Notes under the pieces: generated by a model
Seen by the model: only the letters and a program-made list of their open reading frames with translations
What the model was told of the DNA's origin: nothing
Databases searched by the model: none
Source: an uncultured Acidobacteriota bacterium
Lineage (GTDB): Bacteria > Acidobacteriota > UBA6911
Assembly: GCA_963827655.1 (NCBI GenBank)
Contig: CAWHCF010000014.1
Location: forward strand, 64,001 to 128,000
Length of the DNA: 64,000 bases
Reading direction: 5' to 3'
Position numbers and translations under genes: made by a program
In this document: one piece after another, positions 6,932 to 64,000 of the stretch
Layout of the letters: every line of letters starts with the position of its first letter
Numbering within the stretch: the stretch's first letter is position 1

Positions 6932-8833
6932 TCAGTCGCGCGTGCCCAGGGTGTAGGCGTTGAGGCGGTTGTCCTTCGACGAGTAGAGGAGGGCCGAGGC
7001 CTCGTCGCTGATGAAGCGCTGATCCGGGTCGCTCAGACCGATTGCGCGCTCGGGTACGCCCGTGTTGATGTTGACGCCGATCAGGCCGTTCCCGTCCCCC
7101 TTCAGGTCGGTGTAGAAGTACATCCATCGGCCGCGCAGCGCGGACAGTCGCTGCCGGCGCCCCGCGAAGCGCGACAACGCCTCGAGCCGAGAGGCGGGGT
7201 CGAGACGGTCAAGCAAACGCTCCTCGACGTCGACCGAGGGCGCCGGCACGTCGATCGATGGGCGCGTCGCCAGCCGTTCACGCGCAGAGACGGTCGCGCC
7301 GCCCGCGCGGGAGAGGATGCCGAAGGGCGAGAAGCGCTCGCGCAAATAGTGCCGCGAGTAATCCGTCGCGAGGCTCGTCAGATTGGGCGCCGTCGCATGC
7401 GCCGCGAGGCCCGACCAGCGCAGGCCGTCGACGGCGCTCAATAGCCTGACGCCGCCGAATACGGTCGTCGCCGCGGCGCCGTAGCGAAAGTAGAGCGAGG
7501 CGGCGCGGGCCGTGACCGCCGTCACTGTGCCGAAAATACTGCGACCCGGTGGATCGTGGCGCGCGCGCCACACCGCGCGGTTTGCCGCCAGGTCGAAGGC
7601 GGCAATCTCATTGCGGCCTCCGACAACTGCATGGCCGCGCTCGTTCAGCAGGGCGAAGGCGGCGCGCTCGACGCCGTGCGGGATTTTAGCGCGGGGCTGG
7701 CCCGTGGATGCGTCGATGGCGATGAGATCGTCGCCATCGGCGACGACGACGGTCGAGGCGTCGGGCAACAGCATGTTGGTAATGCCCTTGTCAGCCCCCT
7801 TGAAACGCCAGAGCGTCTTGCCCGTGGACGCGTCAATGGCGCTGACTCCGTATGGACCGCGCTCCACCGACTGGCCGTCTTCGAGGCGCGTGAACCGCCC
7901 GCCTGTCCGCGCATAGAGCGCTCCTCCAGCCAGCGCGATCTCCGGCGTCAAACCCAGGTCTTTGGCCTCCCACACCTCGCGGCCGTCGGCCCGCGAGATG
8001 GCGCGCACGCGGCCCCGCCCGGAGAAGTAGACGAAGCGCTCGTCGGCAACGGGGTCGGCCTCGGTGAGCGCCAGCCCTTCCTCGTTGACGCGGAACTTCT
8101 CGCGCCGGCGCTCCTCGCCCGTCCGCGCGTCGAGCGAGGTGACGCCCTCATAAAAAAGGTAGAGGCGGCCGTCGAAAAAGGCCGGCGGGCGGTAGTTGTC
8201 GAGCGTGTAGGGGAGATCCTCGTCCTCCGAGACGCCAAGGAGGGCGGGCATCATCTCGACCTCGCTATCAAGCTCGCGCTTCCAGAGCTCGCGCCCCCGC
8301 CTCAGGTCGAAAGCCTGCACTACGGCCTTTCGCTTGAATTCACCCCGCGCGCGTCCACGCGCGTCGCGCACGACGACGACGGCGAGCAGCCCGGAGCCAG
8401 GGTCGAACGCCATCTGCATAACCGAGCCGTGCGCTTTGTCGCCGCGCCAGAGCGCCCCGCCCGTGAGCAGATCGACAGCCTCGAGCCGCGTTCTGTCGCC
8501 GCGTTCGAAACTCAGCAGCAGAACATCCGTGCCCGGAACCGCCGCCACGTCCGTCTCGTATAGCCGCGCGTCCTTCCGCCGCCACAGTACCTCGCCGGTC
8601 TCGGACGTCACCGCATACAGCGACTTCTCGGTGCCGATCACCAGCACGCCCAGCTCCGTCGCCTGGTAGAACACGACGCGTCCGTCGAACCTTGCCGACC
8701 AACGCGGCCCTGCCGCCTCGATCGAGCACACGCCCCAAATCAGAAGGCCCAGCGCAAGCCGCAGGCTGATGCGCCCGGGAGCTCGCGGCCGGCCGCGTCT
8801 TTTGACAGCACCGGTATCAAGCACGAAGAACAT
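6932..8833 (-). CDS. Secreted PQQ-like/BamB beta-propeller repeat protein
   Basis: N-terminal hydrophobic signal and repeated A-D-x-x-T-G-x-x-x-W units. Confidence 0.75.
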   Translation of the reverse strand: MFFVLDTGAVKRRGRPRAPGRISLRLALGLLIWGVCSIEAAGPRWSARFDGRVVFYQATELGVLVIGTEKSLYAVTSETGEVLWRRKDARLYETDVAAVPGTDVLLLSFERGDRTRLEAVDLLTGGALWRGDKAHGSVMQMAFDPGSGLLAVVVVRDARGRARGEFKRKAVVQAFDLRRGRELWKRELDSEVEMMPALLGVSEDEDLPYTLDNYRPPAFFDGRLYLFYEGVTSLDARTGEERRREKFRVNEEGLALTEADPVADERFVYFSGRGRVRAISRADGREVWEAKDLGLTPEIALAGGALYARTGGRFTRLEDGQSVERGPYGVSAIDASTGKTLWRFKGADKGITNMLLPDASTVVVADGDDLIAIDASTGQPRAKIPHGVERAAFALLNERGHAVVGGRNEIAAFDLAANRAVWRARHDPPGRSIFGTVTAVTARAASLYFRYGAAATTVFGGVRLLSAVDGLRWSGLAAHATAPNLTSLATDYSRHYLRERFSPFGILSRAGGATVSARERLATRPSIDVPAPSVDVEERLLDRLDPASRLEALSRFAGRRQRLSALRGRWMYFYTDLKGDGNGLIGVNINTGVPERAIGLSDPDQRFISDEASALLYSSKDNRLNAYTLGTRD

Positions 8834-49618: not shown

Positions 49619-50483
49619 CCTTACCCCTCCCCTGGGTCAGCAGTTTCAAGAGTTCTGAATCTGAAGACAGGATGATGCTGGTCTTGTCGTCCAGGATTCG
49701 CTTGTAGGAATCGAGGGTCCGAACCAGCTTGTAGAACTGGGGATCGCGAGAGTATGCCTCTCCGTAGATCCGGGTGGATTCCGCGTCGCCATGACCGCGA
49801 AGCTTTTCCGCTTCGCGATAGGCCTCGGCCAGCATCACCTCTCTTTGCCTGTCGGCGTCGGCCCTGATTTGTATCGCCCTTTCCTCACCCTCGGCCCGGT
49901 ACTGCTTGGCGATTCTCTCCCGCTCCGCGCGCATACGGGCGAACACCGACTTCTTGTTCTGTTCGGGAAAGGTCAAGCGCTTGAGCTGCACATCCATCAC
50001 CTGGATTCCAAACTGATCGCCCGACACCTTGCGCCGAACCGCCTGAGTCACCTCGGCCGTTTTGATGCGGCTCGGCTCCACCGACACCAGGTCTTCCAGT
50101 TTCAGATTGCCCAGCTCCGCTGCCAGGGCCGCCCAGACGATGTCGTGGAGTCGCATCTCGGCGGTCACGACGTCTCCGACCGTCTGAAGGAAACGATTCG
50201 GATCCGATATGCGCCAGATGACATCGCTATCAAGAACCAGATTCTTCTTGTCGCGAGTCAGGAATTCGGAAGGCCTGGGGTTGTATACCAGGAGCCTCTT
50301 CTCAAACCGCAGCAATCGCTGGATCGGCCACTTCAAGTACAGGCCTGCATGCAGGACGGTGCGTACCGGTTTGCCGAACAACGTAACGATGCCCGTCTCG
50401 GTCTCCGGCATAACATAGAATGAGTTCCAAACGATCAGGACGGCGATGAGTACCAGCGCCGCACGCTTCCAACGATCATTCAT
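49605..50483 (-). CDS. hflC: HflC-like SPFH protein
   Basis: FLTRDKKNL, RMRAERERIAKQYRAEGEE and DPQFYKLVRTLDSY. Confidence 0.92.
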   Translation of the reverse strand: MNDRWKRAALVLIAVLIVWNSFYVMPETETGIVTLFGKPVRTVLHAGLYLKWPIQRLLRFEKRLLVYNPRPSEFLTRDKKNLVLDSDVIWRISDPNRFLQTVGDVVTAEMRLHDIVWAALAAELGNLKLEDLVSVEPSRIKTAEVTQAVRRKVSGDQFGIQVMDVQLKRLTFPEQNKKSVFARMRAERERIAKQYRAEGEERAIQIRADADRQREVMLAEAYREAEKLRGHGDAESTRIYGEAYSRDPQFYKLVRTLDSYKRILDDKTSIILSSDSELLKLLTQGRGKVGAQ

Positions 50484-50497
50484 AATCTCTCCATTTA

Positions 50498-50529
50498 AGC
50501 AGTCAGCTGTCAGCTATCAGCAGTCAGCC
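50498..50529. repeat. (TCAGCHR)n heptamer repeat
   Basis: AGCAGTCAGCTGTCAGCTATCAGCAGTCAGCC; similar run at 47338-47362. Confidence 0.75.
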
Positions 50530-50551
50530 ATCAGATTCTGCCTACTGCCTA

Positions 50552-53500
50552 CTACCGTTGCCTGCTACCGTCGCCTGCTTCCTGCTGCTTTTCCTTACCC
50601 GGCTCGACCAGGTTGAGCAGGTTCAAGTCTTTGGCATCCAGAAACAAGAATCTGCGCCTCCCAAGCTTCTTGGAATCGGCAATATACTTTTGCTTGTTGG
50701 GGAGCACCTGTTCAACGGTCTCAAAATAGAGCCGCAGGCTGGTGACCTCGGGAACCTTGCGATAGGCCTGCTCTCTTTCCGCGAAGCGGGCGCTTTCACC
50801 GCGACTTCGTTCGATGCGGGATTTGGAGTAACCCTCGGCCGCCAGAAGACGCGCGCGAGCCTGGCCTCGCGCCAGGGGGACTTGTTCCAACAAGTAACTC
50901 TCGGCTTCGTTGATGCGCGTGCTCTTCTCCTCCAGCGCGCTGGCGACGTCCCTGAACGACTCGACCACCTCCACCGGAGGATGAACGTCCTGAAGGCGCA
51001 CCGACAGCACTTCAAGCCCGCTGTCGTATCGTTTCAGCATCTCACTCAACTCTCCCTGCCACGCCAGCTCGATTTGAGATCTCTGGTCGGTCAGGATGGC
51101 ATCGAGAGGATGCCGCGCCACAATCCAGCGCAGCGTCCGCTCCGCGACTACACGAATCAGGGTCTCGGGTTCCTTTACGTTAAAGAGATAGAACGCGGGA
51201 TCGCGAATGCTGTACTGAGCCACCGCGTTGACTTCGACCAGGTTTTCATCGCCGGTAAGCATCAGCGATTCCTCGGCAACTTTTCGATAGCGTCCCTGCC
51301 GATGCTGCGTATTCCACTCGTAGACGCTCGGTCCCTCTTCGCCTGACGCGGCCTCCAAGTTAGTCCGGTAGCCGATCTCCACGACCTGAACCCGGCGCGG
51401 TGCCAGTCGAGTCACCTTCTCGATCGGCCAGGGCCAGCGGTAGTGGATACCTGGATCGAGGTTCACGGCCAGACGGCCGAAACGCCAGACCACGCCCACC
51501 TGATCGGGTCCCACCAGGACCAGCCCGGACAGTATCCAGAGCAACGTTATCGCCGCAACACTCCAATCGCGGATCGCGCGGCGGTTGTGCGAGAGCTTGT
51601 GTGAAAACTCGTGCCAACCATGTAGGGCCAGGTGCTGACGGGCGTGCTGCCAGCGATGCCGCCAGACGGACGCGGCGGCTGACAGCCGGGATTCCTCTAC
51701 CGCCTTTCCTTCGATCAGCAAGCGAACACAATTCAGGATCACAAAAAGAGAGGCCGCCTGGTGAACAATCGCCGCGATCGGCGGACTAAGATAGCCGAAG
51801 GCTGCGCCCAGGATCGCGATCAGATTCACGCCGAAGGCGAACAGGATAATGCTGGAACGGATGCGCTGGATGGTCTTGCGCGCGAAGGCGATAAGATCCG
51901 GGATCTGTTCGAGGCGATCCTTGAGGAAGACTACATGAGCCGCTTCGGCGCTTATGTCCGCGGCGCCCCGCCCCATCGCAAGGCCCACGTCAGCGACCGC
52001 AAGGGAAGGTGAGTCATTGACGCCATCGCCGGCCATCAGAATGCGCAGTCCCTCGTTGCGCAGTTCGCGAATCTTCTGGGCTTTGTCCTCCGGCAGCAAA
52101 CGGGCATAGACCTCGGAGATGCCCGCCTGCCGGCCGATGTTTTTTGCCGCCAGCTCCTCGTCGCCGGTTACCATCAAGATGCGGGAGATTCCCATTTCCT
52201 TGAGGCGCAGCACCGCGTCCGCAGCATCCGGGCGGAGAGGGTCGCTGAGACCGATTACGCCGATCGGCTTGCCATCCGCCAGCACAATCACTCGTGTCTG
52301 ACCACTGTGCGCGCCGGCGAAGAGGGCGGCCTCGGCCCAATCCAGGTTTTCGGCGGCAGCTTCGCGAGCCAGAGCGAGGTTTCCGACCCGTACCTGCTTG
52401 CCGTCAATCCGGGCCTGCACTCCCAGCCCGGGGCGTATGGAAAAATCCTTCGGGTCCTGAAGGGCGAGTCCGCGACGGGCCGCCTCCTTTACAATCTCCC
52501 GTCCCAGCAAGTGCTCGGACGGTTTTTCCGCGGCCGCGGCCAGAGCGAGTAAATCGTCCTCGGGCACACCGGGTGCGGGCACGACGTCGCTCACACGGGG
52601 GCGGCCTGCCGTCAGAGTGCCGGTCTTATCGAAGGCAACGGCCCGAACCCGCGCCAGCGCCTCGATAATGGTCCCCCCTTTGACGAGCACTCCCTCCCGC
52701 GCCAGACGCGCGATCGATGCCGCTACCGCCGCAGGAGTCGCCAGCACCAAAGCGCAGGGACATGCAACAATGAGCGCGGCGACGGCTCGAAGCGTCTCTC
52801 CGGTGAAGAAGTAAATAGCGCCGCCCGCGACGAGGACCACGGGGAGGAAGTACTTGGCAAATTCGTCCGCCGTGCGTTCTATCGGAGCGCGGTGTTTCTG
52901 AGCTTCAGCAATAAGACGGCTGATACGAGCCAGGGTCGTGTGCTCGCCCACCCTCTCAGCCCGGGCTTCGAGCACGCCGTATTCATTCACACTGCCGCTA
53001 TAAAGGGCATCCCCGGGGCTCTTCTGGGCCGGAAGGGGCTCACCGGTGATCATGCTCTCGTCAACCGAGGACTGGCCCAGCACGACGATCCCATCCACCG
53101 GAACCTTCTCTCCGGCCCTGACTATGACGGTATCGCCAACCCTCACCTCATTGGGATGTAGCTCGACCTCGGCCCCGTCGCGCCGGACGCGGGCCACCGT
53201 GGGGGTCATTTGAACAAAACCGGCTATCGCCCGCTTGGCGCGGGCGACGGTGTAGTGTTCCAGCCCCTCTCCCACCAGCATGATGAACATGACTTCGGCG
53301 GCGGCGAAGTATTCACCGACAGCGACGGCAGCGATGGCCGCGACTGCGATCGCAAGGTCCGCCGACAGCCGACGACTGAGCAGGTCGAGCATGGCCTGGT
53401 AGATGATCTTGTAGCCCGCGACAATTGCGATCAGAAGCGCCGTGTTGAAGCCAAACAGGGTGGTAAACTTGCCGAGACCGTTCAGCAGCAATAACACCCC

Positions 53501-53608
53501 GACGGCCGCGGTGAAGGCAAAGTAGCCCCACATCGATGTGCCATGCACATGGACGTGGTCCCCATGCGTACCGGGGGAATGATCATGATCATGAAACGAT
53601 CCGCTCAC
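50552..53608 (-). CDS. P1B-type heavy-metal ATPase fused to a C-terminal HflK/SPFH domain
   Basis: His-rich N-terminus; [25 protein letters not shown] and GDGVNDSP; then TM + [19 protein letters not shown] and [11 protein letters not shown] in the same frame. Confidence 0.93.
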
Positions 53609-53677
53609 TCAAGCTCCCTTTGAATAGACAATCATTAACATAAAGAGGCCGGGACAGAAAGCCTGATGCTTCCCAAA

Positions 53678-53748
53678 AAGTAGAAAGTAAAAAGTGCTGA
53701 GTTGAAAGTTGCCTTTTTACTCAGCACTCAGCACTTTTTACTTTTCTT
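53678..53748. repeat. AGTGCTGAGT / ACTCAGCACT short-repeat inverted element, copy 2
   Basis: AAGTAGAAAGTAAAAAGTGCTGAGT ... TTTTTACTCAGCACTCAGCACTTTTTACTTT. Confidence 0.75.
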
Positions 53749-53770
53749 AGGGCTATAATCACTGACTCAT

Positions 53771-55018
53771 ATGCCGCGCACGAACTCAATCGAGATCATT
53801 CGCAAAACGCTGGATCTTGCCGGCCACGAGCTGCAGATCCTGCATCAGATCAGCCAGACCATAAGCTGCAGCCTTGACCCGGACCAGATCCTGCGGCACA
53901 TCATCGACCTGGTGGTCGACGTCACGCGCGGAGATTCCTGCCTCCTGTACCTGCTCGACGAGACCGAACAGTCACTCATCCTGAGGGCTTCCAAGAACCC
54001 TCACCCCCGGATCATTGGCAACATCTCGCTCAAGGTCGGCGAGGGGATCACCGGTTGGGTGGCGCGTGAGGCCAAACCGGTGGCGATTCCCAGGCATGCG
54101 AGCAAGGATGCCCGCTTCAAGTTCTTTCATAATCTGCCGGAGGACCGTTACGAAGCCTTTCTCTCGGTTCCCATCATCGCACCCACCGATCGCATGATCG
54201 GAGTCATCAACGTGCAGCATCGGCGGGCGCATCGCCACACCGAACAGGAAATAACCCTCCTGTCGATAATCGGACATCAGGTCGGAGGGGCAATCGAAAA
54301 TGCCCGCCTCTATCAGGAGACGAGCCGCCGGGCGCAGCATCTTTCGGCGCTGGCGCAGGTCGGGCAGATCATCGTCTCCGGGAAATACCTCGAGGAAATG
54401 CTGCAGCTCATCGTCAGCTTCGTGACCGAAATGATGCCGGCCCGCGTCTGCTCGATCATGCTGGTGGATCGGAAAAAGAACGAACTGGTGCTGAAGGCGG
54501 CAAAGTGCTCCAGCCAGGAGTACTGGCAGCGACCCAACCTGAAGATCGGACGGAGTCTTATCAGCCGGGTCGTCAAAGAAAAACGGCCGCTGATTGTCCG
54601 CGACGTAACCCATGAGGTCGAGTATCGCTATCCGGAGCTAGCCAAAAGGGAAGGTGTGCGCTCTCTCCTGTCGGTCCCGATGATCGTCAAGGACCATGTC
54701 ATCGGCGTGATCAATATTTATGCCGCCGAGGAACGCGAGTTCTCCGATGAGGAAGTCCGCCTGCTCTCGACCGTGGCCGACCAGGCAGCCCTGGCAATCG
54801 AAAACACGAAGTTGATGGTGGAGGCGCAGGAGAGCCAGGAAGCTCTTCATGCGCGCAAGCTGGTCGACCGGGCCAAGAGCATCCTGCAACGCCAGGCGCA
54901 GCTTTCTGAGGACGAGGCTTACCGGCGGCTCCAGGAACAGAGCATGCGCACACGGCGCTCGATGCGGGAGATTGCCGAAGCCGTCATTCTCGCCCACGAA
55001 ATGCAGACCAACCGCTAG
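53771..55018 (+). CDS. GAF-GAF-ANTAR RNA-binding regulator
   Basis: Two GAF domains (LKVGEGITGWVA...FLSVPI; SLLSVPMI...VIGVINIY). C-terminal ANTAR RKLVDRAKSILQ...SEDEAYRRLQEQSMRTRRSMREIAEAVI. TATAAT at 53754-53759. Confidence 0.93.
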   Translation: MPRTNSIEIIRKTLDLAGHELQILHQISQTISCSLDPDQILRHIIDLVVDVTRGDSCLLYLLDETEQSLILRASKNPHPRIIGNISLKVGEGITGWVAREAKPVAIPRHASKDARFKFFHNLPEDRYEAFLSVPIIAPTDRMIGVINVQHRRAHRHTEQEITLLSIIGHQVGGAIENARLYQETSRRAQHLSALAQVGQIIVSGKYLEEMLQLIVSFVTEMMPARVCSIMLVDRKKNELVLKAAKCSSQEYWQRPNLKIGRSLISRVVKEKRPLIVRDVTHEVEYRYPELAKREGVRSLLSVPMIVKDHVIGVINIYAAEEREFSDEEVRLLSTVADQAALAIENTKLMVEAQESQEALHARKLVDRAKSILQRQAQLSEDEAYRRLQEQSMRTRRSMREIAEAVILAHEMQTNR

Positions 55019-55043
55019 TGTTTCTTCGTGTCTTCGAGAAACG

Positions 55044-56261
55044 CTAAGAACCTGGTACTTTCGCGATTACGATCGTCGTATCGTCCTCGGGCTGCGCTCT
55101 TCCACTGAAGCGACTCAGCTCCCCATAGATTTGCTCGCACAGCTCTCGCGCGCCGAGCATCGCATGAGCCCGCACGAAAGTCTCGAGTCGCTCTGTCTCG
55201 AACATCTCCCCTTCCACGCTCTCCGTCTCGACCACTCCGTCGGTGTAAAGAACCAGGGTGTCTCCCGGCAGGAGATCGATGAAGCGCTCGTTGTACGCTG
55301 CTCCCGCAAGAATACCCAGGACGGGCCCGCCACTCGAGAGATAGCGCCGACGGCCGTCGGCGCGCAAAAGGATTGCGGGATGATGCCCGGCGCTGCTGTA
55401 GGTCAGGCGGCGACGCCCGGTATCCAGTACTCCATAGAAGGCCGAGACGAACTGGTTGTCCTTGAGCCACTCCTTCAGCAGGTTGTTTACCTTGGCAAAG
55501 ATGGTTCGGATCGCGTAGTTGTTTCGGATCTCAGCTCGCAAAAACGCGCGAAAACTGGCCATGATCAGCGAAGCCGGGATGCCTTTACCGACCACGTCGG
55601 CTATCACAATCCCAAGATGCCCCTCCACGATGGGAATGAAATCGAAGTAGTCGCCCCCGATCTCCTCCGAGGGAATGTAGATGCCACTGAGGTCGAGACC
55701 GGAGAGTGTTGGAGCGCCCGTCGGCAGCAGGCTTAACTGCACGTCTCGAGCGATTCTCAATTGCTCACCGAGTCGCCGCTTTTCAGCCATTCCCTGGTAG
55801 ATCGCAGCCTTGGCAAGGGAGATGGCGGCTTGCGAAGCGACCACCGACAGCCATTCCAGGTCCTGCCGGTTGAAGCCGTCAGGTCGATTGCTTTCCAGTT
55901 TGAATGCGCCCAGAACCTTTTCCTGATTCACAATCGGCACAGTCAGCTGGCTGCGCGTCGCTTTCTCAGGCTGCGACATGTTTTCCACCAGGATGGCCTC
56001 ACCCGTTTCAAGCACCTTCCGGACCATCCCTCCCACCTTCTCCAGGCTAAGCTCGGGTTGATCGAGTCCGCTGGAGTTCCGCCCGGCGACGCGGCTCACG
56101 GATCCGTCGTCCTGGTTAAGGACGTAGATTTCGGCGGAATCGTAAGGGATCACAGTGTGCACCGAATCGACGATGAAGCTCAGGTCCTCGCGCGCATCAA
56201 GCGAAGCGCCGAGCTTTTGATTTATCGCAAGAAGCACTCGAAGTCTCGATTCGTCCGCCAT
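55044..56261 (-). CDS. GAF + SpoIIE/PP2C serine phosphatase (RsbU-like)
   Basis: IGGDYFD, IADVVGKGIPA, LYTDGVVE and EDDTTI. Confidence 0.93.
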   Translation of the reverse strand: MADESRLRVLLAINQKLGASLDAREDLSFIVDSVHTVIPYDSAEIYVLNQDDGSVSRVAGRNSSGLDQPELSLEKVGGMVRKVLETGEAILVENMSQPEKATRSQLTVPIVNQEKVLGAFKLESNRPDGFNRQDLEWLSVVASQAAISLAKAAIYQGMAEKRRLGEQLRIARDVQLSLLPTGAPTLSGLDLSGIYIPSEEIGGDYFDFIPIVEGHLGIVIADVVGKGIPASLIMASFRAFLRAEIRNNYAIRTIFAKVNNLLKEWLKDNQFVSAFYGVLDTGRRRLTYSSAGHHPAILLRADGRRRYLSSGGPVLGILAGAAYNERFIDLLPGDTLVLYTDGVVETESVEGEMFETERLETFVRAHAMLGARELCEQIYGELSRFSGRAQPEDDTTIVIAKVPGS

Positions 56262-56497
56262 CCCGAAAACCCTGCCTGTCTTGGTCTGTTCCCGGGCGGG
56301 CGGTCGTCTCGAACCTGAACCGCCACGCATGGGAAATACGGATAGTAACATTTGGGCAGGGGTTGCGGGTGGAAGACGTAAAGAATTGCGAGCGCGTGTT
56401 ACGGAAGGAAATTCGACCTTGCGTTAGTGTCCCCGCGCCTTCGTGGTCAGGCGCTCACCACGAAGACGCGAAGACGCGCAGGAATGCTTAAGGAACT

Positions 56498-57850
56498 CTA
56501 ACGCTCCTGACCCATCAGGTAAACAAGACCGATGGTCGCGGTCGTCTGGCTGCGGCTCAGGACGCCCGATCGCTTTTCGAAAAAGGGCCGGTCAGACCAA
56601 TCGCCCCGGTACTCTGCCCGCATGAGCAGCGCGCCGCGAGCCTTGAATTCCATGGTGAAGGTCGCTTCCTTGAGCGTCTGAGCCAGGCCGGTAGTAAACC
56701 CCTGAGGGTCGTCAAACCACTCTACCCGGGGGGCAATGGCAAACCACGGTGTGACGGCGAAGCGGAAGTATCCTGCCACACCCTGCCATCGAACTCTCTC
56801 CCCCAGGAGTCGATCCATTCCGTAGTCATAGTTGAACATCAGCGACAAACGGTCGGTGGCATTCACCGTAAGGATCGTGTCCAGGACGTGGCGGCTGTCG
56901 TCGCTGTTGTCGAGCTGCTCGGCGCCCACAATGTAGTTCTGGATCAGGTTCAGTTTCCTGAAAGGCGTGAAATTGACCGAAAGACCGACGCTCTTTCCGC
57001 CATTATTGTCGACCACATTGTTCCAGCCGTTCACGAGTAATCCCGCCACCGTCAGTTTGTCACCCAAGGGGTACGAGACGCGCGCGCCGAAGTGGTAGTA
57101 AGGAATTGCCCATGAGAAGAGCAGGGATCGCGAATAGTTATAGTTCAAGGGCGTCTCGATCACCTCGGCTCCCATATGGGTGACGAATTTCCCGACGTCC
57201 ACGCTGAGGCCTTTTCCCAGCGGCGCCTTGTAGGTCACATAGGCTTGCTGCAGGTACTGGTAGACGTCGGAGCCGCCGGGCTCGGCGGCATGCACGAACT
57301 TGGCGGTGTCGCCGAAATTCAGGTCCAACCGGAATCCCAGCGGGTCTGCTTTCCGCTCCATCGCGAGCTCGATCAGGTTCAGGCTGAACTGGTTATGATT
57401 GAGGTCGAAATTCCGTAACGGGTTCTTCCGGCTCGGTGGGCGGTTGAAGTTGTAACCATAATACGTGTCGGCAAAGCCGCTGAATTCGATCTTGTCAAAA
57501 AACGAGGCTCTGTTGCCGGCAGGCGGGGCAGGATCGGCCTTAGCCGGCTCTGCGGTCGAGCCATTCGCTCCCTCGGCAATCACAGCTTCCGGCGCTTTCC
57601 CGTTATCCTGGCTTGCCGAGCCTCGACCCTCCAGTTCCCGGAGGCGAGCCTCCAGCACGCGAATGGTTTCCTCCAGACTGCTGATCCGTTCCTCGGTCGA
57701 GGCTGCTTTGGATGCGGAGCCGGTTGGAGTGTTTCCTGCAGTGGCAGCCTCATCCGGGGATGGATGCGCCCGGAGAGTCGTGAGGTTCAGACCTGCAAAG
57801 AAAAGCAGCAGTAACGAAAGCTCTATCAGACTTCGTCTTGCTAAAAACAT
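56498..57850 (-). CDS. Outer-membrane beta-barrel porin (BBP2/DUF1597-like) with N-terminal coiled coil
   Basis: Signal peptide, coiled coil, FADTYYGYNFN, LQQAYV, GKFVTHMGAEVI, NYNYSRSLLF, NGWN and RAEYRGD. Confidence 0.88.
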   Translation of the reverse strand: MFLARRSLIELSLLLLFFAGLNLTTLRAHPSPDEAATAGNTPTGSASKAASTEERISSLEETIRVLEARLRELEGRGSASQDNGKAPEAVIAEGANGSTAEPAKADPAPPAGNRASFFDKIEFSGFADTYYGYNFNRPPSRKNPLRNFDLNHNQFSLNLIELAMERKADPLGFRLDLNFGDTAKFVHAAEPGGSDVYQYLQQAYVTYKAPLGKGLSVDVGKFVTHMGAEVIETPLNYNYSRSLLFSWAIPYYHFGARVSYPLGDKLTVAGLLVNGWNNVVDNNGGKSVGLSVNFTPFRKLNLIQNYIVGAEQLDNSDDSRHVLDTILTVNATDRLSLMFNYDYGMDRLLGERVRWQGVAGYFRFAVTPWFAIAPRVEWFDDPQGFTTGLAQTLKEATFTMEFKARGALLMRAEYRGDWSDRPFFEKRSGVLSRSQTTATIGLVYLMGQER

Positions 57851-58077
57851 GGACCGCCTCTCTTCTGAAGAGGCAGGGCGGATACTCGGACGAGCCTTGC
57901 AGCTTCAAGCGCGGATCGGGTATGTGATAGGATTCCCGTCACGAGAAACTGGCCCTGCCAGTTGATCGCCTAGAGACGAGGGGGAAGGCCGACCAGACAC
58001 TCTCCCTCGCCTCACCTCAACGCCATCAGGCCATTACCTGAGATCGCCTGCCTTCTCGGGACTGGAGACGACAGGGC

Positions 58078-58127
58078 AAAAAAAAACGTCTGCAAGCCGA
58101 GAGATCTCCTCTTCGGCTTGAAGACGT
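58078..58127 (-). terminator. Intrinsic terminator 2 in the porin leader
   Basis: RNA ACGUCUUCAAGCCGAAGAG-gagau-CUCUCGGCUUGCAGACG followed by U9. Confidence 0.9.
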
Positions 58128-58153
58128 CGTCGTCAGAATATGACTTCGGTGTC
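58123..58153 (-). ncRNA. ANTAR-target dual hairpin, module 2
   Basis: GAC-ACCGAA-GUC, 7-nt linker, GAC-GACGAC-GUC; the second hairpin overlaps the 5' arm of terminator 2. Confidence 0.8.
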
Positions 58154-58155
58154 GT

Positions 58156-58198
58156 AAAAGAAAAAAGTCTTCAAACCCGGCTCGGGGCTCGAAGACTT
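58156..58198 (-). terminator. Intrinsic terminator 1 in the porin leader
   Basis: RNA AAGUCUUCGAGCCC-cgagcc-GGGUUUGAAGACUU-UUUUCUUUU: 14-bp stem with two G-U pairs. Confidence 0.9.
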
Positions 58199-58233
58199 CG
58201 TCGTCTCTCCGTCAGCGATACGTCCTTGTATCG
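58193..58233 (-). ncRNA. ANTAR-target dual hairpin, module 1
   Basis: CGAUAC-AAGGAC-GUAUCG, 9-nt linker, AGAC-GACGAA-GUCU; the second hairpin overlaps the 5' arm of terminator 1. Confidence 0.85.
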
Positions 58234-58242
58234 TTGGCGCAT

Positions 58243-58271
58243 CTTTTAAGCTCTATCGCGCCGGGAGTCAA
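58243..58271 (-). promoter_or_regulatory. Candidate sigma70 promoter for the porin leader
   Basis: TTGACT-N17-TAAAAG just upstream of the first hairpin; the -10 is imperfect. Confidence 0.45.
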
Positions 58272-58306
58272 GAGAATTGTGCAGGGAAGTAACTTGACCG
58301 CGAAGA

Positions 58307-60823
58307 CTATCGGAGGGTCACGAAGAAAGGGCTTCCCCAAGCCATCTCGGGATCCCGCTCAGGCGCCTCGACATCCTTCTGAATGACCCGGACGTAATAG
58401 TAATGTTTTCCCGAAGGCGCTTCCGTATCCTGGTAGCTTCCGCGAAATTCCCTGCCCTTCCCCGGCACCGTGTAGACCACTTTGCCATCGCGCACCAGGT
58501 CGACGCGCACGAGATCGTTGCGCGCCCGCACAAAAATCTTCAGGCTCGGCTTCGCCGTCAGCTCGAATTCCTCTCCCATCGCGTGGTCGTTCATCGAGGC
58601 ATCCAGAATAATGTCGTCGGAAGCGGCAAAGGTCCGTCGTGCCAGCATCGCGTCGATGATTCCGCCGCGCGTCGCTTCTTTCACGTAGACACAGGCGTAG
58701 GAATTATGCGTGGAGAAGTGATCCGAGCTCGCGATGAACCCGTATCGATATCCTTTGTTGAGGGCGTCCTGGGCGAAGGTTCCCGACTCTTTCAGCTGCG
58801 ACTGTCCCCGTTTTTCACCCTGAACGGCTTCAGCCGTTTCGTACGAGCTGCGCGCCCCCTGATAGATTTCAAGCACCGGTTCGAACGCCGGATTCTCCCA
58901 ATCCCAGCGGCCGATCGACTGCGTGGTTTCGGCGAATGTGTGCGGGATGATTACAGCTTTTTGCGCCGAACCATTTCTGAGTACGCCGCGCATCCACTCC
59001 CACAAGCGCTCCGGCAGATTATCCTCCTTCACCCGCTCGCGATCCACCAGGCGCAACGGCGCGCCGCGCCGGAGAAAAACGATGTTGCGATGACCGCTCG
59101 GCGTCGCGAGGGAATGCTCGTACGCATACATGCCGTTGAAGGCCGGAGGATTCGAAAACATGTCCGCAGCCTTTTGAGTCCACCACCATTGATAGTCCCT
59201 CAGTCCGTCGGGCCAGCGGCCCCCGGTCGCCTGGTTATGATCGGTGGTACCGAGAAAATCCAGCTCGGCGGCGTCGAGGGCGTACCGGTAGGTGTCAAGA
59301 ATTGATCCGTCGACGCCATTGTGTCCGCGAATGTCGGTATGCCGGTGAAGATCGCCATACAGGAGCTGGTAGCGCTGCCCCCCTATGTTAGTACTGTAGC
59401 GCGAGCGCGGCACGGCGGCAGGGCGCTCCTTTTCCGGCACGACGGTCTGAAGCGCGGGGCCAGGCGCCGCCGGGCCAGGCGGAAGCGACGCACTGTAGAT
59501 CCGATAGGTGCGCGCTTTTTCCGATGAGGGAGATTGCTGAGGTTGGTCGCGGCCATCGCTGGAATAGACTACCTGAACCGTGCCGTCTTTCCCCAGCGCG
59601 ACCGCCGCGCGCTGGGAGTTCTGGCCCGCGCTGTTTTGGAGCTGAGCCGGAGCCGTCCAGCCATTTCCATTCCAGCGAGTGGCGTAGAAGTGGTAGATCT
59701 CGCTGGGTGCCGCGCTGGTCCAGTGGCGGAAAACCAGCACGGGCCGGTCATTCCCATCAAATGCCAGAAGCGGGAGTTCGGCGAAGCGCTCCATGCGGCC
59801 GGTCAGAACAGTCGAGACCGCGCTGGCCGGCTCCGCCAGCCCGTCACGCGAGTGAATCCGAATTCCGATCCTGCGTGACTGATGCAATCCTCCGCTTCCA
59901 GGGGCCGCAGTCTTGCTGCCTTGCGAGAAGTCCTTGCCCCAATTCTCGCCGGCAATATCGTAGACCACCCAGAGCCTGCCCTGCGAGTCGCAGGCGGCAG
60001 AGGCATGAAATTCGGCCTGGAGCGAATCGGCCACCGGCACAACCGGGCCCAGCTTTCCCCGGTCGAGGCTGCGCGCGTAGACGTTGTAATCGCCCGTCTG
60101 GTACGAATCCCAGGCGATGTAGACCATACCGCCGGAGTCAACCGCCAGGGCCGGCTCCCAATCGTTGGCGTCGCTGGACGAGACCCGGATGTCGCTGCTC
60201 CACTGGTCCCCTTTCAGCTGGCGCGCAAGAATATCCGATTTCCCGTTTCGGAATGCCTGCCAGGCCAACGTGATCGTTCCCGCGCGATCCGCGATCAGCC
60301 TGGGATTGACATCGGACCCTGCTGCGTTCGTCAAACGCCGGGGCGTCCCGGCTTTCCCGTCAGGCTCAATCCAGGCCGCGTAAACCTCCCAGTCTTCACC
60401 GGCGCGCCCTGACCAGGCACAAAGAAGACGTTCTCCGCGGGCGGCCATGACGGGGCCGTGGTGAGCCGCATTCCCATCGTTCACGATAATCGAGGGACGA
60501 CTCCGCTCCCACCTCGGGTTGCGAACGACCACCCGGTCGGAATCTCTGCCATCCCATTCCACCCACGAAGCCCAGAGCTCTCCGGCAGCCGTGGACACCA
60601 GCGATGGGAAGTCGGATTGATCCTCCGTGATCGAGACCTGACTGGACGCGATCACCGGATACTGTCTCTGTTCGGCCGCCGGGGTGGCTTGTCGTGGCTG
60701 CTGAACGGCCTCCACCTCCGCAGCCTGATCGCGCTTGATGGCACTCGAACTATTGTGCGACAGAAGCTGCCAGCCGGCACTCAGGATCAACAGCACAAAG
60801 GCGAACACGACACGTCCAAGCAT
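58307..60823 (-). CDS. Secreted beta-propeller + PHP-like metallohydrolase (DUF3604/CehA-McbA-like)
   Basis: Signal peptide; YGDLHRHT, LDFLGTTDH, GHRNIVF, IIPH and GFIASSDH. Confidence 0.8.
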   Translation of the reverse strand: MLGRVVFAFVLLILSAGWQLLSHNSSSAIKRDQAAEVEAVQQPRQATPAAEQRQYPVIASSQVSITEDQSDFPSLVSTAAGELWASWVEWDGRDSDRVVVRNPRWERSRPSIIVNDGNAAHHGPVMAARGERLLCAWSGRAGEDWEVYAAWIEPDGKAGTPRRLTNAAGSDVNPRLIADRAGTITLAWQAFRNGKSDILARQLKGDQWSSDIRVSSSDANDWEPALAVDSGGMVYIAWDSYQTGDYNVYARSLDRGKLGPVVPVADSLQAEFHASAACDSQGRLWVVYDIAGENWGKDFSQGSKTAAPGSGGLHQSRRIGIRIHSRDGLAEPASAVSTVLTGRMERFAELPLLAFDGNDRPVLVFRHWTSAAPSEIYHFYATRWNGNGWTAPAQLQNSAGQNSQRAAVALGKDGTVQVVYSSDGRDQPQQSPSSEKARTYRIYSASLPPGPAAPGPALQTVVPEKERPAAVPRSRYSTNIGGQRYQLLYGDLHRHTDIRGHNGVDGSILDTYRYALDAAELDFLGTTDHNQATGGRWPDGLRDYQWWWTQKAADMFSNPPAFNGMYAYEHSLATPSGHRNIVFLRRGAPLRLVDRERVKEDNLPERLWEWMRGVLRNGSAQKAVIIPHTFAETTQSIGRWDWENPAFEPVLEIYQGARSSYETAEAVQGEKRGQSQLKESGTFAQDALNKGYRYGFIASSDHFSTHNSYACVYVKEATRGGIIDAMLARRTFAASDDIILDASMNDHAMGEEFELTAKPSLKIFVRARNDLVRVDLVRDGKVVYTVPGKGREFRGSYQDTEAPSGKHYYYVRVIQKDVEAPERDPEMAWGSPFFVTLR

Positions 60824-60950
60824 AGGAGTTCCTCCTTAGTTCAGCGAGTCACAATTACGCTAACTGTATTTGGATCGGCGCATGTCCACTCGCCCTAGCA
60901 CGTGAAACACCAAGGTCTGCACTGAATTATGCGGCCCTTAGCGGTGAACC

Positions 60951-62137
60951 TTATCTCGAATCGCCTGGGCTAAGCTTGATGAGCGCTCGCGCGCCGGCGC
61001 GAAGACCGTCGAGCGTGAGCTCGTACATCGGAAAGATCCGGCGAATAGCCTCCGTCGTCGGAATGGAGTTCCACCATCTCTTCGGCTCGGGGTTCAGCCA
61101 GATGGCTTTCTTGAACCGCTTGCGGATATCCTGCAGCCATTCAATGCCGGGACGATCGTTCCGATACCAGTAATCGATGGCCCCATTGGGCGACATCAAC
61201 TCGCTCGGGGCCATGTAGGCGTCCCCCACGAGAAGCACCTTATAGCTGCGGTCCGTTTGCTCCAGTACCCGGCGGGTTGGAATGCTCTTGCGCTGCCCGA
61301 TGTCGGTATACAGGTCCTGGTAAATGCAGTTGTGGAAATAGTAGAACTTCAGCTCGCGCACGATGTCTCTGGCAGCCGAAAACAACCGGCTCACGATTTC
61401 CGCGTGAGGCGTCATGGTTCCTCCCGCGTCCATTAACAACAGCAGCTTGATTTTCTTCTTTCGGGTGCGATCCCAGACGAACTCCAGTTCTCCGGCGTTC
61501 CGGCTCGTGGCATCAATCGTACGGTCCAGATCCAGCTGGTCCTTGGGCCCGTCCCGAACCATCTGGCGAAGGTAGCTGAGGGCCATTTTCAAGGAGCGAG
61601 TGTCGAGCAGGATATCGTCGCGGTAGTTCTCGAACGCGCGCCGCTCGGCGATTTTGACGGCGCTGCCCATCCGCCCCGCTCCCTGGCCCAGCCGCACCGC
61701 GGCAGGATTGAATCCGCCCGCCCCCTGGGTCGACTTGCCCCGCACGCCGATAGCCCGGTTCCCCCCTTCGTGCCGGGCGAAGTTCCTGCCCCGCAGCTGC
61801 TCGAGGAAATTGGCCTCGATCTGCGCCAGCTCCAACTTCTCGACCAGCGCCTTCTCCTCTTCCGTCAGTTCCAGGGGAGGAAGCCTCAGCATCTCGGCCT
61901 CGACAAGTTTGACCAGTTCCTCGGTCGATTCGATGTGACGGAAACACTCGAGGAAAGCCCGGTCATACTGTCGAAATGGGCCTCACTCTTGACCAGGATG
62001 GACCGCGCCAGGTAATAGAACCGGACCAGTGAGCTATCCGCCAGATTCTCGGATAGCGCGCGCTGCAGCAGCAGCCACTCATTGAAGGTGACGGGAACGC
62101 CGTGCTTGCGCAAGGCCCGGAAGAGATTGATGAACAT
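60951..62137 (-). CDS. CoxE-like VWA-domain protein; apparent frameshifts near 61970 and 61935
   Basis: MFINLFRALRKHGVPVTFNEW...VKSEAHFD, LDLDRTIDAT, LLMDAGGTM, YFHNCIY and WLNP. Confidence 0.88.
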
Positions 62138-62216
62138 CACACGCCCCTGAATTGCCGGCTGCAGTGGGACGAACCGCTTTCTTGGAGTCTTCGCGGCTTC
62201 GCGGTAAAAATCGAAT

Positions 62217-63020
62217 TCAATGGACGGCGAATTTATCCACGTCCTCTTCCATTTTCAGCAGCACGCCGAGGAAGGGCAGCCGGCGGTTGAGTTCCTCTTC
62301 GGTAATGCCCGCCGCGGTCACGGCCTGGATCCAGTCGAGCAGCTCGCTGGTCGACGGTCGTTTCTTCAAGTCGTGTTTCTGACGGACAAAATAGAATCGG
62401 GCAATGATCTGCGAAATGAGGGTATGGCGCAGTCCGGGGAAGTGTACGTCGGCAATCCGCTGCATCATGGCAGGATCGGGAAACTCGATGTAGTGGAAGA
62501 GGCAGCGGCGCAGGAACGCGTCCGGCAATTCCTTCTCGCTGTTGCTGGTGATCACTACGATGGGGCGGCGCTTCGCCTTGAAGTGATCCCCGGTCTCGAT
62601 AATGTCGAAGCTCATCTGATCCAGCTCGTACAGCAGATCGTTGGGAAACTCCAGGTCGGCTTTGTCGATCTCGTCAATGAGCAGCACGACCTGGTTTTCA
62701 GACCTCAGGGCCCGCCCGAGTTTTCCCAGCCTGATGTATTGCCTGATATCGGAGACATCCTTATCGTGAAATCGGGAGTCATTCAATCGCTGCACCGTGT
62801 CGTACACGTACAATCCCTCGCTGGCCTTGGACGTCGACTTGATATTCCAGGTAATGAGCTCCAACCCGAGATCGTCCGCAATGACGCGCGCCAGCTCAGT
62901 CTTGCCGGTACCGGGCTCTCCCTTCAGAAGCAACGGGCGCTGAAGGACGATGGCGGCATTCACGATCTCCCGCAAAGCGTCGCTGAGGATATAGGTATCT
63001 GTCCCTTTGAATCGTTCCAT
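62217..63020 (-). CDS. MoxR-family AAA+ ATPase
   Basis: GEPGTGKT, LLIDEIDKAD and KELPDAFLRRC. Confidence 0.95.
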   Translation of the reverse strand: MERFKGTDTYILSDALREIVNAAIVLQRPLLLKGEPGTGKTELARVIADDLGLELITWNIKSTSKASEGLYVYDTVQRLNDSRFHDKDVSDIRQYIRLGKLGRALRSENQVVLLIDEIDKADLEFPNDLLYELDQMSFDIIETGDHFKAKRRPIVVITSNSEKELPDAFLRRCLFHYIEFPDPAMMQRIADVHFPGLRHTLISQIIARFYFVRQKHDLKKRPSTSELLDWIQAVTAAGITEEELNRRLPFLGVLLKMEEDVDKFAVH

Positions 63021-63982
63021 AAAGTCTTAACCGGACGTCTCGCGCTTTTTCCCGGCACGCACCATCCGCCCCGCTTTATCCGGAAAACCCGGGAACCGGT
63101 GTGGGAGCTCCCTTTGGCAAGCGCGGCGCGGCGAAGGATGCGATCGGCCGCCGCGCGATGAGGGTTATCGATAAGCTGACCATCGAGCGTCGAGAGCGCG
63201 CGCCCGCGCGTCTCGGCCTGGTTCAATTCCGCGACGACTTTTTCGGCCCAGGCGATCTCGTCTGAAGTCACATCAAAAATCTCGTTAATGACTTCGAGCT
63301 GCGCCGGGTGAAGCGCATTCTTGCCGTCGAATCCGATCCGGCGCGCCTGCGTTGCTTCCCGCCGGAGCCGCTCCTGGTCGCGCAGCTCAAAGCAGGGCGC
63401 GTCGATAGCTTCGATGCCGGCGGCGCGAGCCGCAATGACAATCTGCTCGAGCGCCAGCAGGAGTTCCACGCGATCCTCGCCCGGATGACAGCGCACATCC
63501 TTGATGTAGTCGGCCGAACCGAAGATGAGAGTGGCCAGGCGCGGCGAAGCCGCGGCGATGGCGGGCGCTTGAAGCAGTCCGCGAGCGGACTCGATCATCG
63601 CGTGGAATCTCAGTTCTCCTTCGTCAATACCGTAGCCTTGTTCCAGTTCCAGAACCGCGATGTCGGCCGCGCAAATCTCGGCCGCCGACTCCACCTTGGG
63701 AAGGCAAATTCCATCGGGACGGCACGGCACGATGGCGGCGAGATCCTTCCGGCCGATTTCGGAATCGATCGAGTTGATTCGCACCACGATCTCTTTCGAA
63801 CCGAATTCCAGGTTCCGGAGCGATTGCGCCACATTTTCGCGCGCCTCATCCTTTTTCGTCAACGCGACCCCGTCCTCGAGGTTGAGCAGGAGCAGGTCGG
63901 CTGCGGTTGCCGCCGCCTTGCGCAGCATCTTCTCGCTGTCTCCAGGGACGTAGAGCGAGCTGCGGCGGAGTCCGGTGATCAT
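62960..63982 (-). CDS. citE: CitE/HpcH-family CoA ester lyase; true C-terminus uncertain
   Basis: RSSLYVPG, LEDGV, VRIN, LPKVES, MIES and GFDGKNALHP. The ORF reads into moxR, so a stop may have been lost. Confidence 0.85.
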   Translation of the reverse strand: MITGLRRSSLYVPGDSEKMLRKAAATAADLLLLNLEDGVALTKKDEARENVAQSLRNLEFGSKEIVVRINSIDSEIGRKDLAAIVPCRPDGICLPKVESAAEICAADIAVLELEQGYGIDEGELRFHAMIESARGLLQAPAIAAASPRLATLIFGSADYIKDVRCHPGEDRVELLLALEQIVIAARAAGIEAIDAPCFELRDQERLRREATQARRIGFDGKNALHPAQLEVINEIFDVTSDEIAWAEKVVAELNQAETRGRALSTLDGQLIDNPHRAAADRILRRAALAKGSSHTGSRVFRIKRGGWCVPGKSARRPVKTLWNDSKGQIPISSATLCGRS

Positions 63983-64000
63983 GCCATTTGGTCCTCGACG

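Follow-up and report, generated by a model that had tools for sequence, protein, structure and literature searches.

The window analysed here is a stretch of 64,000 nucleotides (nt) from contig C14 of an uncultured Acidobacteriota bacterium, whose assembly (G000) comprises 8.18 Mb and is 90% complete. It carries, on the plus strand, a gene for a one-component regulator with two GAF domains and an ANTAR domain and, on the minus strand, a gene for an outer-membrane porin of the BBP2/OmpL type, the leader of which contains two consecutive modules, each made up of small hairpins and an intrinsic terminator (Table 1). An earlier note on this DNA had proposed that the GAF-GAF-ANTAR protein controls the porin through these serial attenuators and that the circuit serves nitrogen uptake. 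That proposal is supported computationally by the anatomy of the leader, by a second leader of the same kind before amtB, by the nitrogen genes behind related leaders and by conservation. The locus probably belongs to an ANTAR-type transcription-attenuation regulon for nitrogen uptake, in which the GAF-GAF-ANTAR protein would read the tandem leaders of the porin gene and of amtB.

The porin leader and its candidate regulator

The two modules, four hexaloops and two terminators that the earlier note had described in the porin leader were each recovered on the minus strand, to the base. Module 1 contains the hairpins P1 and P2, and module 2 their counterparts P1' and P2'. All four loops are hexamers with G at position 4 (G4) and a C-G closing pair; at position 1, where an ANTAR target RNA is expected to carry A (A1), P1 and P1' have A, and P2 and P2' have G (G1). 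A linker of 9 nt separates P1 from P2 and one of 7 nt separates P1' from P2', and module 2 begins three bases past the T-run of module 1 (TTTTTTCTTTT). By terminator scan, terminator 1 has 15 pairs (G-T allowed), six of them G-C, and its 5' arm begins within the loop of P2, while the stem of terminator 2, read from the sequence, has 13 pairs and one mismatch. In both modules the P2 hairpin and its terminator are mutually exclusive. Both terminators are formed in the minimum-free-energy fold of the 186-nt leader (-77.6 kcal/mol, z = -5.4 against 200 shuffles), and the default state would therefore be termination.

This architecture corresponds to the ANTAR substrate as described in PMC3369931, namely a pair of G4 hexaloop hairpins with stems of 3 base pairs (bp) or more, a linker of 5-12 nt in the eut leaders and a P2 that overlaps a terminator. 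In the window the stems of at least 3 bp, the G4 hexaloops, the short linkers and the overlap of P2 with the terminator are all present. Ahead of P1 lies a promoter-like sequence from which transcription is predicted to start a few bases before that hairpin. The promoter appears sigma-70-like and constitutive-looking; it was missing from a consensus promoter scan because TAAAAG fails the rule of that scan for the second hexamer.

The proposed antiterminator has a clear ANTAR domain (PF03861, 64.1 bits against a cut-off of 27.3), which aligns over 55-61 residues with EutV (6wsh), Rv1626 (1s8n) and NasR (4akk). No other PF03861 match was found in the 8.18 Mb, and the gene lies 3.1 kb from the porin leader. 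N-terminal of the ANTAR domain are two stretches of PF13185/PF01590, with matches to PDB entries over residues 18-192 and 189-352. The first GAF domain is closest to 3e0y and to the GAF domains of PtsP (EI-Ntr; 3ci6, E 6e-20, and 3trc, 2.5e-16), and a further match is to the GAF domain of Nlh1 (4g3k), a regulator that we take to be NifA-like. In both PtsP and NifA, the GAF domains respond to glutamine or 2-oxoglutarate. As to the expression of the regulator itself, a TATAAT at 53754-53759 (plus strand) stands just 11 nt ahead of the ATG, so that its mRNA may be nearly leaderless, and a hairpin with a T-run lies just upstream (region 53692-53771).

The porin assignment is equally clear (PF07642, 303.9 bits against a cut-off of 26.2), the match spanning positions 1-337 of the 339-position profile.

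Table 1. Features of the locus in the window, and genes found behind related leaders in metagenomes
Feature	Position or locus	Strand	Basis
-35-like TTGACT of the predicted leader promoter	58266-58271	-	read from sequence
-10-like TAAAAG, 17 nt past TTGACT	58243-58248	-	read from sequence
Module 1 P1 hairpin CGATAC[AAGGAC]GTATCG; A1, G4, 6-bp stem	58216-58233	-	read from sequence
Module 1 P2 hairpin AGAC[GACGAA]GTCT; G1, G4, 4-bp stem; excludes terminator 1	58193-58206	-	read from sequence
Terminator 1, stem-loop and T-run	58156-58199 (stem-loop 58199-58164; T-run 58166-58156)	-	terminator scan, fold
Module 2 P1' hairpin GAC[ACCGAA]GTC; A1, G4, 3-bp stem	58142-58153	-	read from sequence
Module 2 P2' hairpin GAC[GACGAC]GTC; G1, G4, 3-bp stem; excludes terminator 2	58123-58134	-	read from sequence
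Terminator 2, stem-loop and T9	58078-58126 (stem-loop 58126-58087; T9 58086-58078)	-	sequence, fold
GAF-GAF-ANTAR one-component regulator, 415 amino acids (aa), proposed antiterminator	53771-55018	+	Pfam
BBP2/OmpL-like outer-membrane porin, 450 aa, proposed regulated gene	56498-57850	-	Pfam PF07642
Conserved 13-bp hairpin in the 5' untranslated region (5'UTR) of the porin gene, no T-run, downstream of both terminators	57973-58013	-	read from sequence
9-bp hairpin over purine-rich stretch/ribosome-binding site just before the porin start	57854-57876	-	terminator/hairpin scan
GAF-SpoIIE (PP2C phosphatase) gene, 147 nt past the porin gene	55044-56351	-	Pfam
Glutamine synthetase behind related leader	L062, L067, L117; by N-terminal sequence L097, L108		metagenome
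Ammonium transporter behind related leader	L100, L090, L069		metagenome
CitMHS_2 transporter behind related leader	L099 (135-1523)	-	metagenome
CitMHS_2 transporter behind related leader	L066 (256-1671)	+	metagenome
Amidase behind related leader	L094		metagenome
Secreted 412-aa protein without Pfam family, then Peripla_BP_5 binding protein, behind related leader	L083		metagenome

Related leaders in this genome, its relatives and metagenomes

A scan with the P2 word revealed a second leader on contig C25 of the same assembly, before an ammonium transporter gene (PF00909, 428 bits; amtB, L002 6873-8279, minus strand). Its promoter is the identical TTGACT-17-TAAAAG. In module 1, CGGCAC[AAAGGC]GTGCCG is joined by a linker to GAC[GACGAA]GTC, which has a terminator, and module 2 has GAC[AACGGA]GTC with a terminator and T9; the P1' of this leader, read from the sequence, is degenerate, with a pentaloop and two G-U pairs. 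The earlier note had expected leaders of this type before several nitrogen genes of the genome, and this was borne out for amtB, which has the same double module, and not for the glnB-glnA operon. No such leader precedes that operon, the two other glnA genes or the second amt gene of G000. The clear P-II gene of this genome lies directly upstream of a glnA, behind a plain promoter (C22 209165-211000). The earlier note had suggested that porins of this family often neighbour amtB/glnK; in this genome, inspection of the neighbourhoods of both amt genes revealed no porin or P-II gene beside either.

The specificity of the signal was assessed over the whole genome with two models, R1 and R2. R1 was built from three first modules only, because the P1 of second modules was misplaced in the MAFFT alignments A1 and A2; in these, the Nitrospira hairpin was also set under P2. 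Both models assign 50-60 bits to the porin and amtB leaders, and all other sites in G000 score at most 25.5 bits, are coding and lack a terminator; module 2 of the window by itself scores only 14.9 bits. Weak matches in other genomes also fall in coding sequence. Of 119 AC[NNNGNN]GT hairpin pairs on both strands, seven are accompanied by a T-run within 75 nt, and three of these seven are modules of the porin and amtB leaders. A scan for single hairpins with an overlapping terminator returned 37 sites, in which GAC...GTC with a long terminator is confined to the four modules of the two leaders; the other 33 were judged by eye to be weak or coding. An initial loose descriptor was too noisy, as it returned 15336 dual hairpins, of which 155 had a loosely defined terminator, and ranking by energy was no better. 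R1, R2 and the three descriptor scans together revealed no further strong leader site in the 8.18 Mb, and the regulon of this genome seems to consist of just the porin and amtB leaders.

The closest homologues of the regulator are found in an acidobacterial genome (88% identity), a Terriglobia genome (58%) and genomes of the Nitrospira group (53-57%). Among 137 genomes of the class, the regulator is matched at E<=1e-30 in G000 and in one relative, G007, only, with a partial match in G089, and strong R1 matches among 51 genomes of the family are likewise restricted to G000 and G007. R2 returned no match at E<=1e-4 in 150 further genomes sampled across the phylum. These tallies include one unpublished genome, G046, which has no match. 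G000 and G007 are close kin (their regulators are 88% identical), and the joint presence of regulator and leader in both therefore counts as one event. G007 has a double-module leader, 83% identical over 86 nt, which precedes another amt gene and follows a VWA gene; in a blastn search against 60 relatives, G007 alone rose above chance-level short matches. The porin leader of G007 is truncated by a contig end, and the locus of the 88% regulator (L003) likewise ends ahead of its leader.

Four leaders could be aligned from the -35 element to terminator 2, namely those of the window, of G007, of amtB and of the metagenome locus L083. TTGAC is conserved in all three whose aligned range reaches that site (as a full TTGACA in L083), and the -10 column reads TAAAAG, TATAAA or TAAAAA in all four. 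Paired cells amount to 98% in the hexaloop hairpins and 86% in the terminators. Terminator 1 reaches 98%, and terminator 2, in this unrefined alignment, 72%, with a stem that varies in sequence and five pairs that change on both sides. The overlap of P2 with the terminator is kept in all four leaders, as is the P2' stem, whose loop has G or A at position 1. The loops corresponding to P1' are ACCGGA in G007 and AAAGAA in L083.

Metagenomes were scanned with a pattern that combines ACGAM-GTCTTC (the 3' part of P2), a gap and GARGACTTTTT (the 3' arm of terminator 1 and its T-run), and in which P1 is not included. This gave 78 matches on 76 loci, representing 37 distinct leaders. The complete GAC-N-ACGAM-GTC hairpin is present in 62 of the 78 matches, its GAC being absent from the pattern, and a G4 hexaloop hairpin lies 0-14 nt upstream in all 61 P2-complete matches with enough upstream sequence, compared with 2 of 16 matches that lack P2. 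G4 was a condition of the P1 search, so that its occurrence in all listed P1 loops of the 37 leaders is partly by design. These loops are mostly of the AAYGRN type; by first base the 37 comprise 29 with A, four with G, two with T, one with C and one with A that departs from this type (AGCGAC), and the two T-first loops represent a mis-picked hairpin. Counting maximal stems, the linker between P1 and P2 is 0-10 nt. Position 1 of the P2 loop is G in 24 of the 37 unique leaders, A in 10 and T in 3; the G1 that the earlier note had remarked upon in second loops is therefore real in both modules of the window and is not a conserved feature of the family.

The conservation that the same note had suggested examining proved to be of two kinds, with compensatory changes in P1 and the terminators and invariance in the P2 stems. 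Over 31 leaders, in an alignment that a model had fitted to the structure, both partners vary in each of the six P1 pairs and 97% of cells are paired, compared with 21-52% when the partner is slid. The GAC...GTC stem of P2 is kept in 30-31 of the 31 and, being invariant, is neutral as covariation. Second modules, judged by eye, occur in transporter-type leaders and not in glnA leaders. A strict automatic rule recognised a second module in 6 of 40 unique leaders, and three more were added by eye (L016/L077, L083/L126, L064/L090), having been missed because their terminator stems are bulged. Among about nine tandem leaders in relatives are five in whose second module a hexaloop P1' could not be found.

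The genes behind these leaders share a nitrogen theme, with glutamine synthetases, ammonium transporters and an amidase among them (Table 1). The Peripla_BP_5 protein of L083 is presumably UrtA-like. CitMHS_2 (putative citrate-type) transporters are unexpected in a nitrogen regulon, and a link through carbon skeletons or 2-oxoglutarate is conceivable. Two groups of leaders, the L060 group (L060, L065, L072, L078, L081, L096 and others) and the L063 group, precede small open reading frames (ORFs) without a Pfam family, one encoding a 60-aa product that starts MVLIKVQWDAYNRQF, others encoding membrane-like products that start MAATPQQGT.

GAF-ANTAR genes also stand directly beside such leaders in other lineages. 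In six of seven loci of the Nitrospira group (L006-L011, at about 7230-7420), the regulator homologue (53-57% identity) is directly followed by a promoter, a G4 hexaloop hairpin GGAC[AANGRC]GTCC that overlaps a terminator, and then nadE, which encodes a glutamine-dependent NAD synthetase. A first hexaloop hairpin, GAC[AACGNA]GTC or GAC[GATGCG]GTC, lies about 19 nt upstream in L006, L007, L010 and L011 and was not found in L008 and L009; the seventh locus, L005, lacks the downstream sequence and the leader. In L007 (7417-11956), the one locus scanned for it, the PII uridylyltransferase gene glnD follows nadE. In an AT-richer organism, L067 (4637-6811, minus strand) has, immediately ahead of a leader and glnA, a gene for a 232-aa ANTAR protein with a single GAF domain.

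Proposed mechanism, alternatives and known systems

In the proposed mechanism, transcripts from the constitutive-looking, sigma-70-type promoter would by default end at one of the two serial intrinsic terminators. On induction, an active dimer of the regulator would bind the G4 hexaloops of the emerging leader, P1 first and then P2. The 3' half of P2 doubles as the 5' arm of the terminator, so that P2, once held folded, would block termination, and the same step at module 2 would allow RNA polymerase to read into the porin gene. The near-identical leader on the other contig would work likewise for amtB, its hairpins being bound by the same protein. The signal would most likely be nitrogen status, perceived through the GAF domains, with activation presumably under nitrogen limitation; as to the ligand, 2-oxoglutarate or glutamine are the leading guesses. 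Two modules in series might lower leakiness or sharpen the response.

Several observations weigh against this scheme. The joint occurrence of regulator and leader rests on a single lineage (G000 and G007), and the regulator gene is near a leader on only 1 of 76 metagenome loci, which says little since most of these contigs are short. R1 and R2 are narrow, giving Nitrospira leaders about 20 bits or less, and their negative scans therefore undercount diverged sites. The Nitrospira linker of about 19 nt exceeds the tolerance reported for EutV (PMC8934654). The alignment behind the P1 covariation leans towards the structure, and its sequences are related. Contigs from metatranscriptomes (see below) may be DNA carry-over, and they derive from relatives that are 95-99% alike. 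Finally, the second loops have G1 rather than A, and an A-to-U change at this position lowered induction in Enterococcus faecalis (PMC3369931). The variability of P2 position 1 is less troubling in view of structural work on EutV, in which G4 is described as the only base-specific contact (PMC8934654).

Could these be genuine nitrogen-responsive attenuators that are read by something else, such as another RNA-binding protein, a small-molecule-sensing RNA or a small RNA, with the ANTAR protein regulating other targets? The link between protein and RNA consists of likeness of motif, proximity and co-occurrence in one lineage, the P2 loops lack the canonical A1, and the contigs of most metagenome leaders carry no regulator gene. 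Against this, the hairpins agree with the definition of an ANTAR target in loop size, G4, linker and terminator overlap, are too small for a ligand pocket, and adjoin GAF-ANTAR genes directly in three separate settings. Furthermore, no Rfam family matched the leader region above E 5; a scan of 50000-64000 with E up to 10, using a library without an ANTAR family, returned chance matches only, the best at 19.1 bits. Another reader of these leaders is accordingly improbable.

A different role for the leader would be to yield mainly a short terminated RNA of about 80 or 160 nt, with two or four hexaloops, that titrates the ANTAR protein in the manner of EutX/Rli55 and so buffers the amtB leader. 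Four predicted binding hairpins on one short RNA would suit such a role, sequestration of EutV by EutX has been described (PMC8934654), and the 228 nt that lead from terminator 2 to the porin start (57850) contain further hairpins. The same layout precedes amtB, however, where terminator 2 is only about 40 nt from the start codon, and one contig from an RNA library bridges terminator 2 into the 5'UTR. This 312-nt contig, which covers 57895-58186, belongs to a set from four soil metatranscriptome runs of three studies, mostly 95-99% alike, that fall on the porin ORF and leader; the runs hold contigs only, and uncovered parts are uninformative. Given that the contigs come from relatives and that the libraries may contain DNA, they offer only a weak hint of read-through transcripts. 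Titration as the main function is very unlikely, and it is compatible with regulation of the porin by antitermination.

Least credible of all is that the stem-loops and T-runs are plain tandem terminators of the 838-aa gene upstream on the same strand (58307-60823; stop at 58307), with hexaloops by chance, since, although the elements do lie 74 to 229 nt past its stop, a promoter-like TTGACT-17-TAAAAG stands between that stop and P1, the same cassette recurs before amtB behind an unrelated gene and in G007 behind the VWA gene, and P1 accompanies 61 of 61 related terminators with a nitrogen theme downstream.

Antitermination by the GAF-GAF-ANTAR protein can be compared with characterised ANTAR systems. 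The eut leaders of E. faecalis, bound by EutV/EutW (PMC3369931; PMC8934654), share the two G4 hexaloops, the short linker and the overlap of P2 with the terminator, and the ANTAR domain of the window regulator can be aligned with that of EutV. In the eut system, however, a kinase phosphorylates a receiver domain, whereas here the sensor is a pair of GAF domains in the same protein; P2 position 1 is A in eut and G, A or T here; the eut sites are spread over four places in the operon (PMC8934654), whereas here two modules stand back to back in one leader; and the targets serve ethanolamine use in the one case and, as proposed, nitrogen uptake in the other.

Nearer in function is the GnfK/GnfR system of Geobacter sulfurreducens, in which GnfR controls amtB, glnK and nif leaders by ANTAR antitermination through a conserved hairpin of the GGC-AANGGC-GCC type that overlaps the terminator (PMC2995071). 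GnfR is a response regulator within an RpoN/GnfLM cascade, whereas the regulator of the window is a one-component GAF-GAF protein and the promoters look sigma-70-like; the phylum differs as well. NasR (NIT-ANTAR) at nasF and AmiR at amiE resemble the present case in being ligand-controlled ANTAR proteins without a kinase, with a hexaloop before a terminator and a role in nitrogen metabolism (PMC3369931). NasR binds nitrate itself and AmiR is held by the amide-binding AmiC (PMC3369931); both differ from the present system in sensor domain, in having a single attenuator and in serving a single operon that adjoins the regulator.

Ramesh et al. (2012; PMC3369931) listed sites from 1902 genomes, and the regulons predicted there, e.g., that of Desulfotomaculum acetoxidans, in which 13 sites are distributed over six transcription units, also place several ANTAR sites in one transcription unit and include sites ahead of genes for glutamine synthetase, P-II and ammonium transporters. 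That ANTAR proteins can control an ammonium transporter is in principle already known, and the unusual features here are the modules in tandem and the sensor with two GAF domains. GAF and PAS sensors are common among ANTAR proteins, and according to PMC3369931 no such protein had been characterised. A search of the literature since 2012, judged by titles and the beginnings of abstracts, found no characterised GAF-ANTAR protein, and passages of a 2025 review (PMC12591593) name GAF solely as a type of domain. The statement in the earlier note that no ANTAR regulon has been described in Acidobacteriota agrees with a full-text search judged by titles, and literature searches found none in Nitrospira (judged by titles) and no directly tandem ANTAR attenuators, the supplementary tables of PMC3369931 lying outside the scope of all three.

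A more far-reaching combination of ideas is that the regulator uses a PtsP-like GAF domain to sense nitrogen status directly, as 2-oxoglutarate or glutamine, that it governs a post-initiation regulon from constitutive sigma-70-type promoters apart from NtrBC/sigma-54, and that the tandem leaders act as a relay in which a dimer is passed from module 1 to module 2. Taken together these propositions are tentative and rather doubtful. The EutV dimer has been proposed to move from P1 to P2 in succession (PMC8934654), which is why a dimer might also pass on to module 2, and such a relay would explain the second modules without a hexaloop P1' and the degenerate P1' of the amtB type. If true, the relay would be evidence from a natural system for successive binding as modelled by Walshe et al. 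(2022), and the protein would be the first GAF-ANTAR protein with defined RNA targets, in a system spanning at least Acidobacteriota and Nitrospirota.

The predicted system is well defined and small enough to suit a first study, comprising a single regulator and, in this genome, two leaders with four binding modules in all, and it belongs to a leader family of at least 37 distinct members ahead of glnA, amt and other nitrogen genes. It bears on how uncultured soil Acidobacteriota, and perhaps Nitrospira by way of nadE-glnD, sense nitrogen limitation. It also raises the questions of whether serial attenuators alter the dose response and whether a single hexaloop suffices for a second module, as the successive-binding model predicts.

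Other features of the locus

Downstream of the two terminators, the porin 5'UTR contains two further hairpins of note (Table 1). The 13-bp hairpin recurs, read from the sequence and with compensatory changes, at the start of G007 contig C430 (L057, about 17-63). The 9-bp hairpin just before the start codon may add a second, translational layer of control. Past the porin stop, a hairpin without a T-run (56440-56480, minus strand) is built of CGTCTTCG-type repeats, and CGTCTTCG-like words occur elsewhere in the genome (e.g., C4, C16, C26), as in a dispersed repeat.

The gap between the porin gene and the GAF-SpoIIE gene contains a hairpin without a T-run, and the two genes may be co-transcribed. 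In G007 the porin gene adjoins the regulator gene with no GAF-SpoIIE gene in between, and from this comparison the latter does not appear to be a conserved part of the system. Beyond the regulator, the minus strand at 50552-53608 encodes a 1018-aa protein in which a P-type ATPase (E1-E2 ATPase and hydrolase domains) is fused to a C-terminal SPFH/Band 7 domain.

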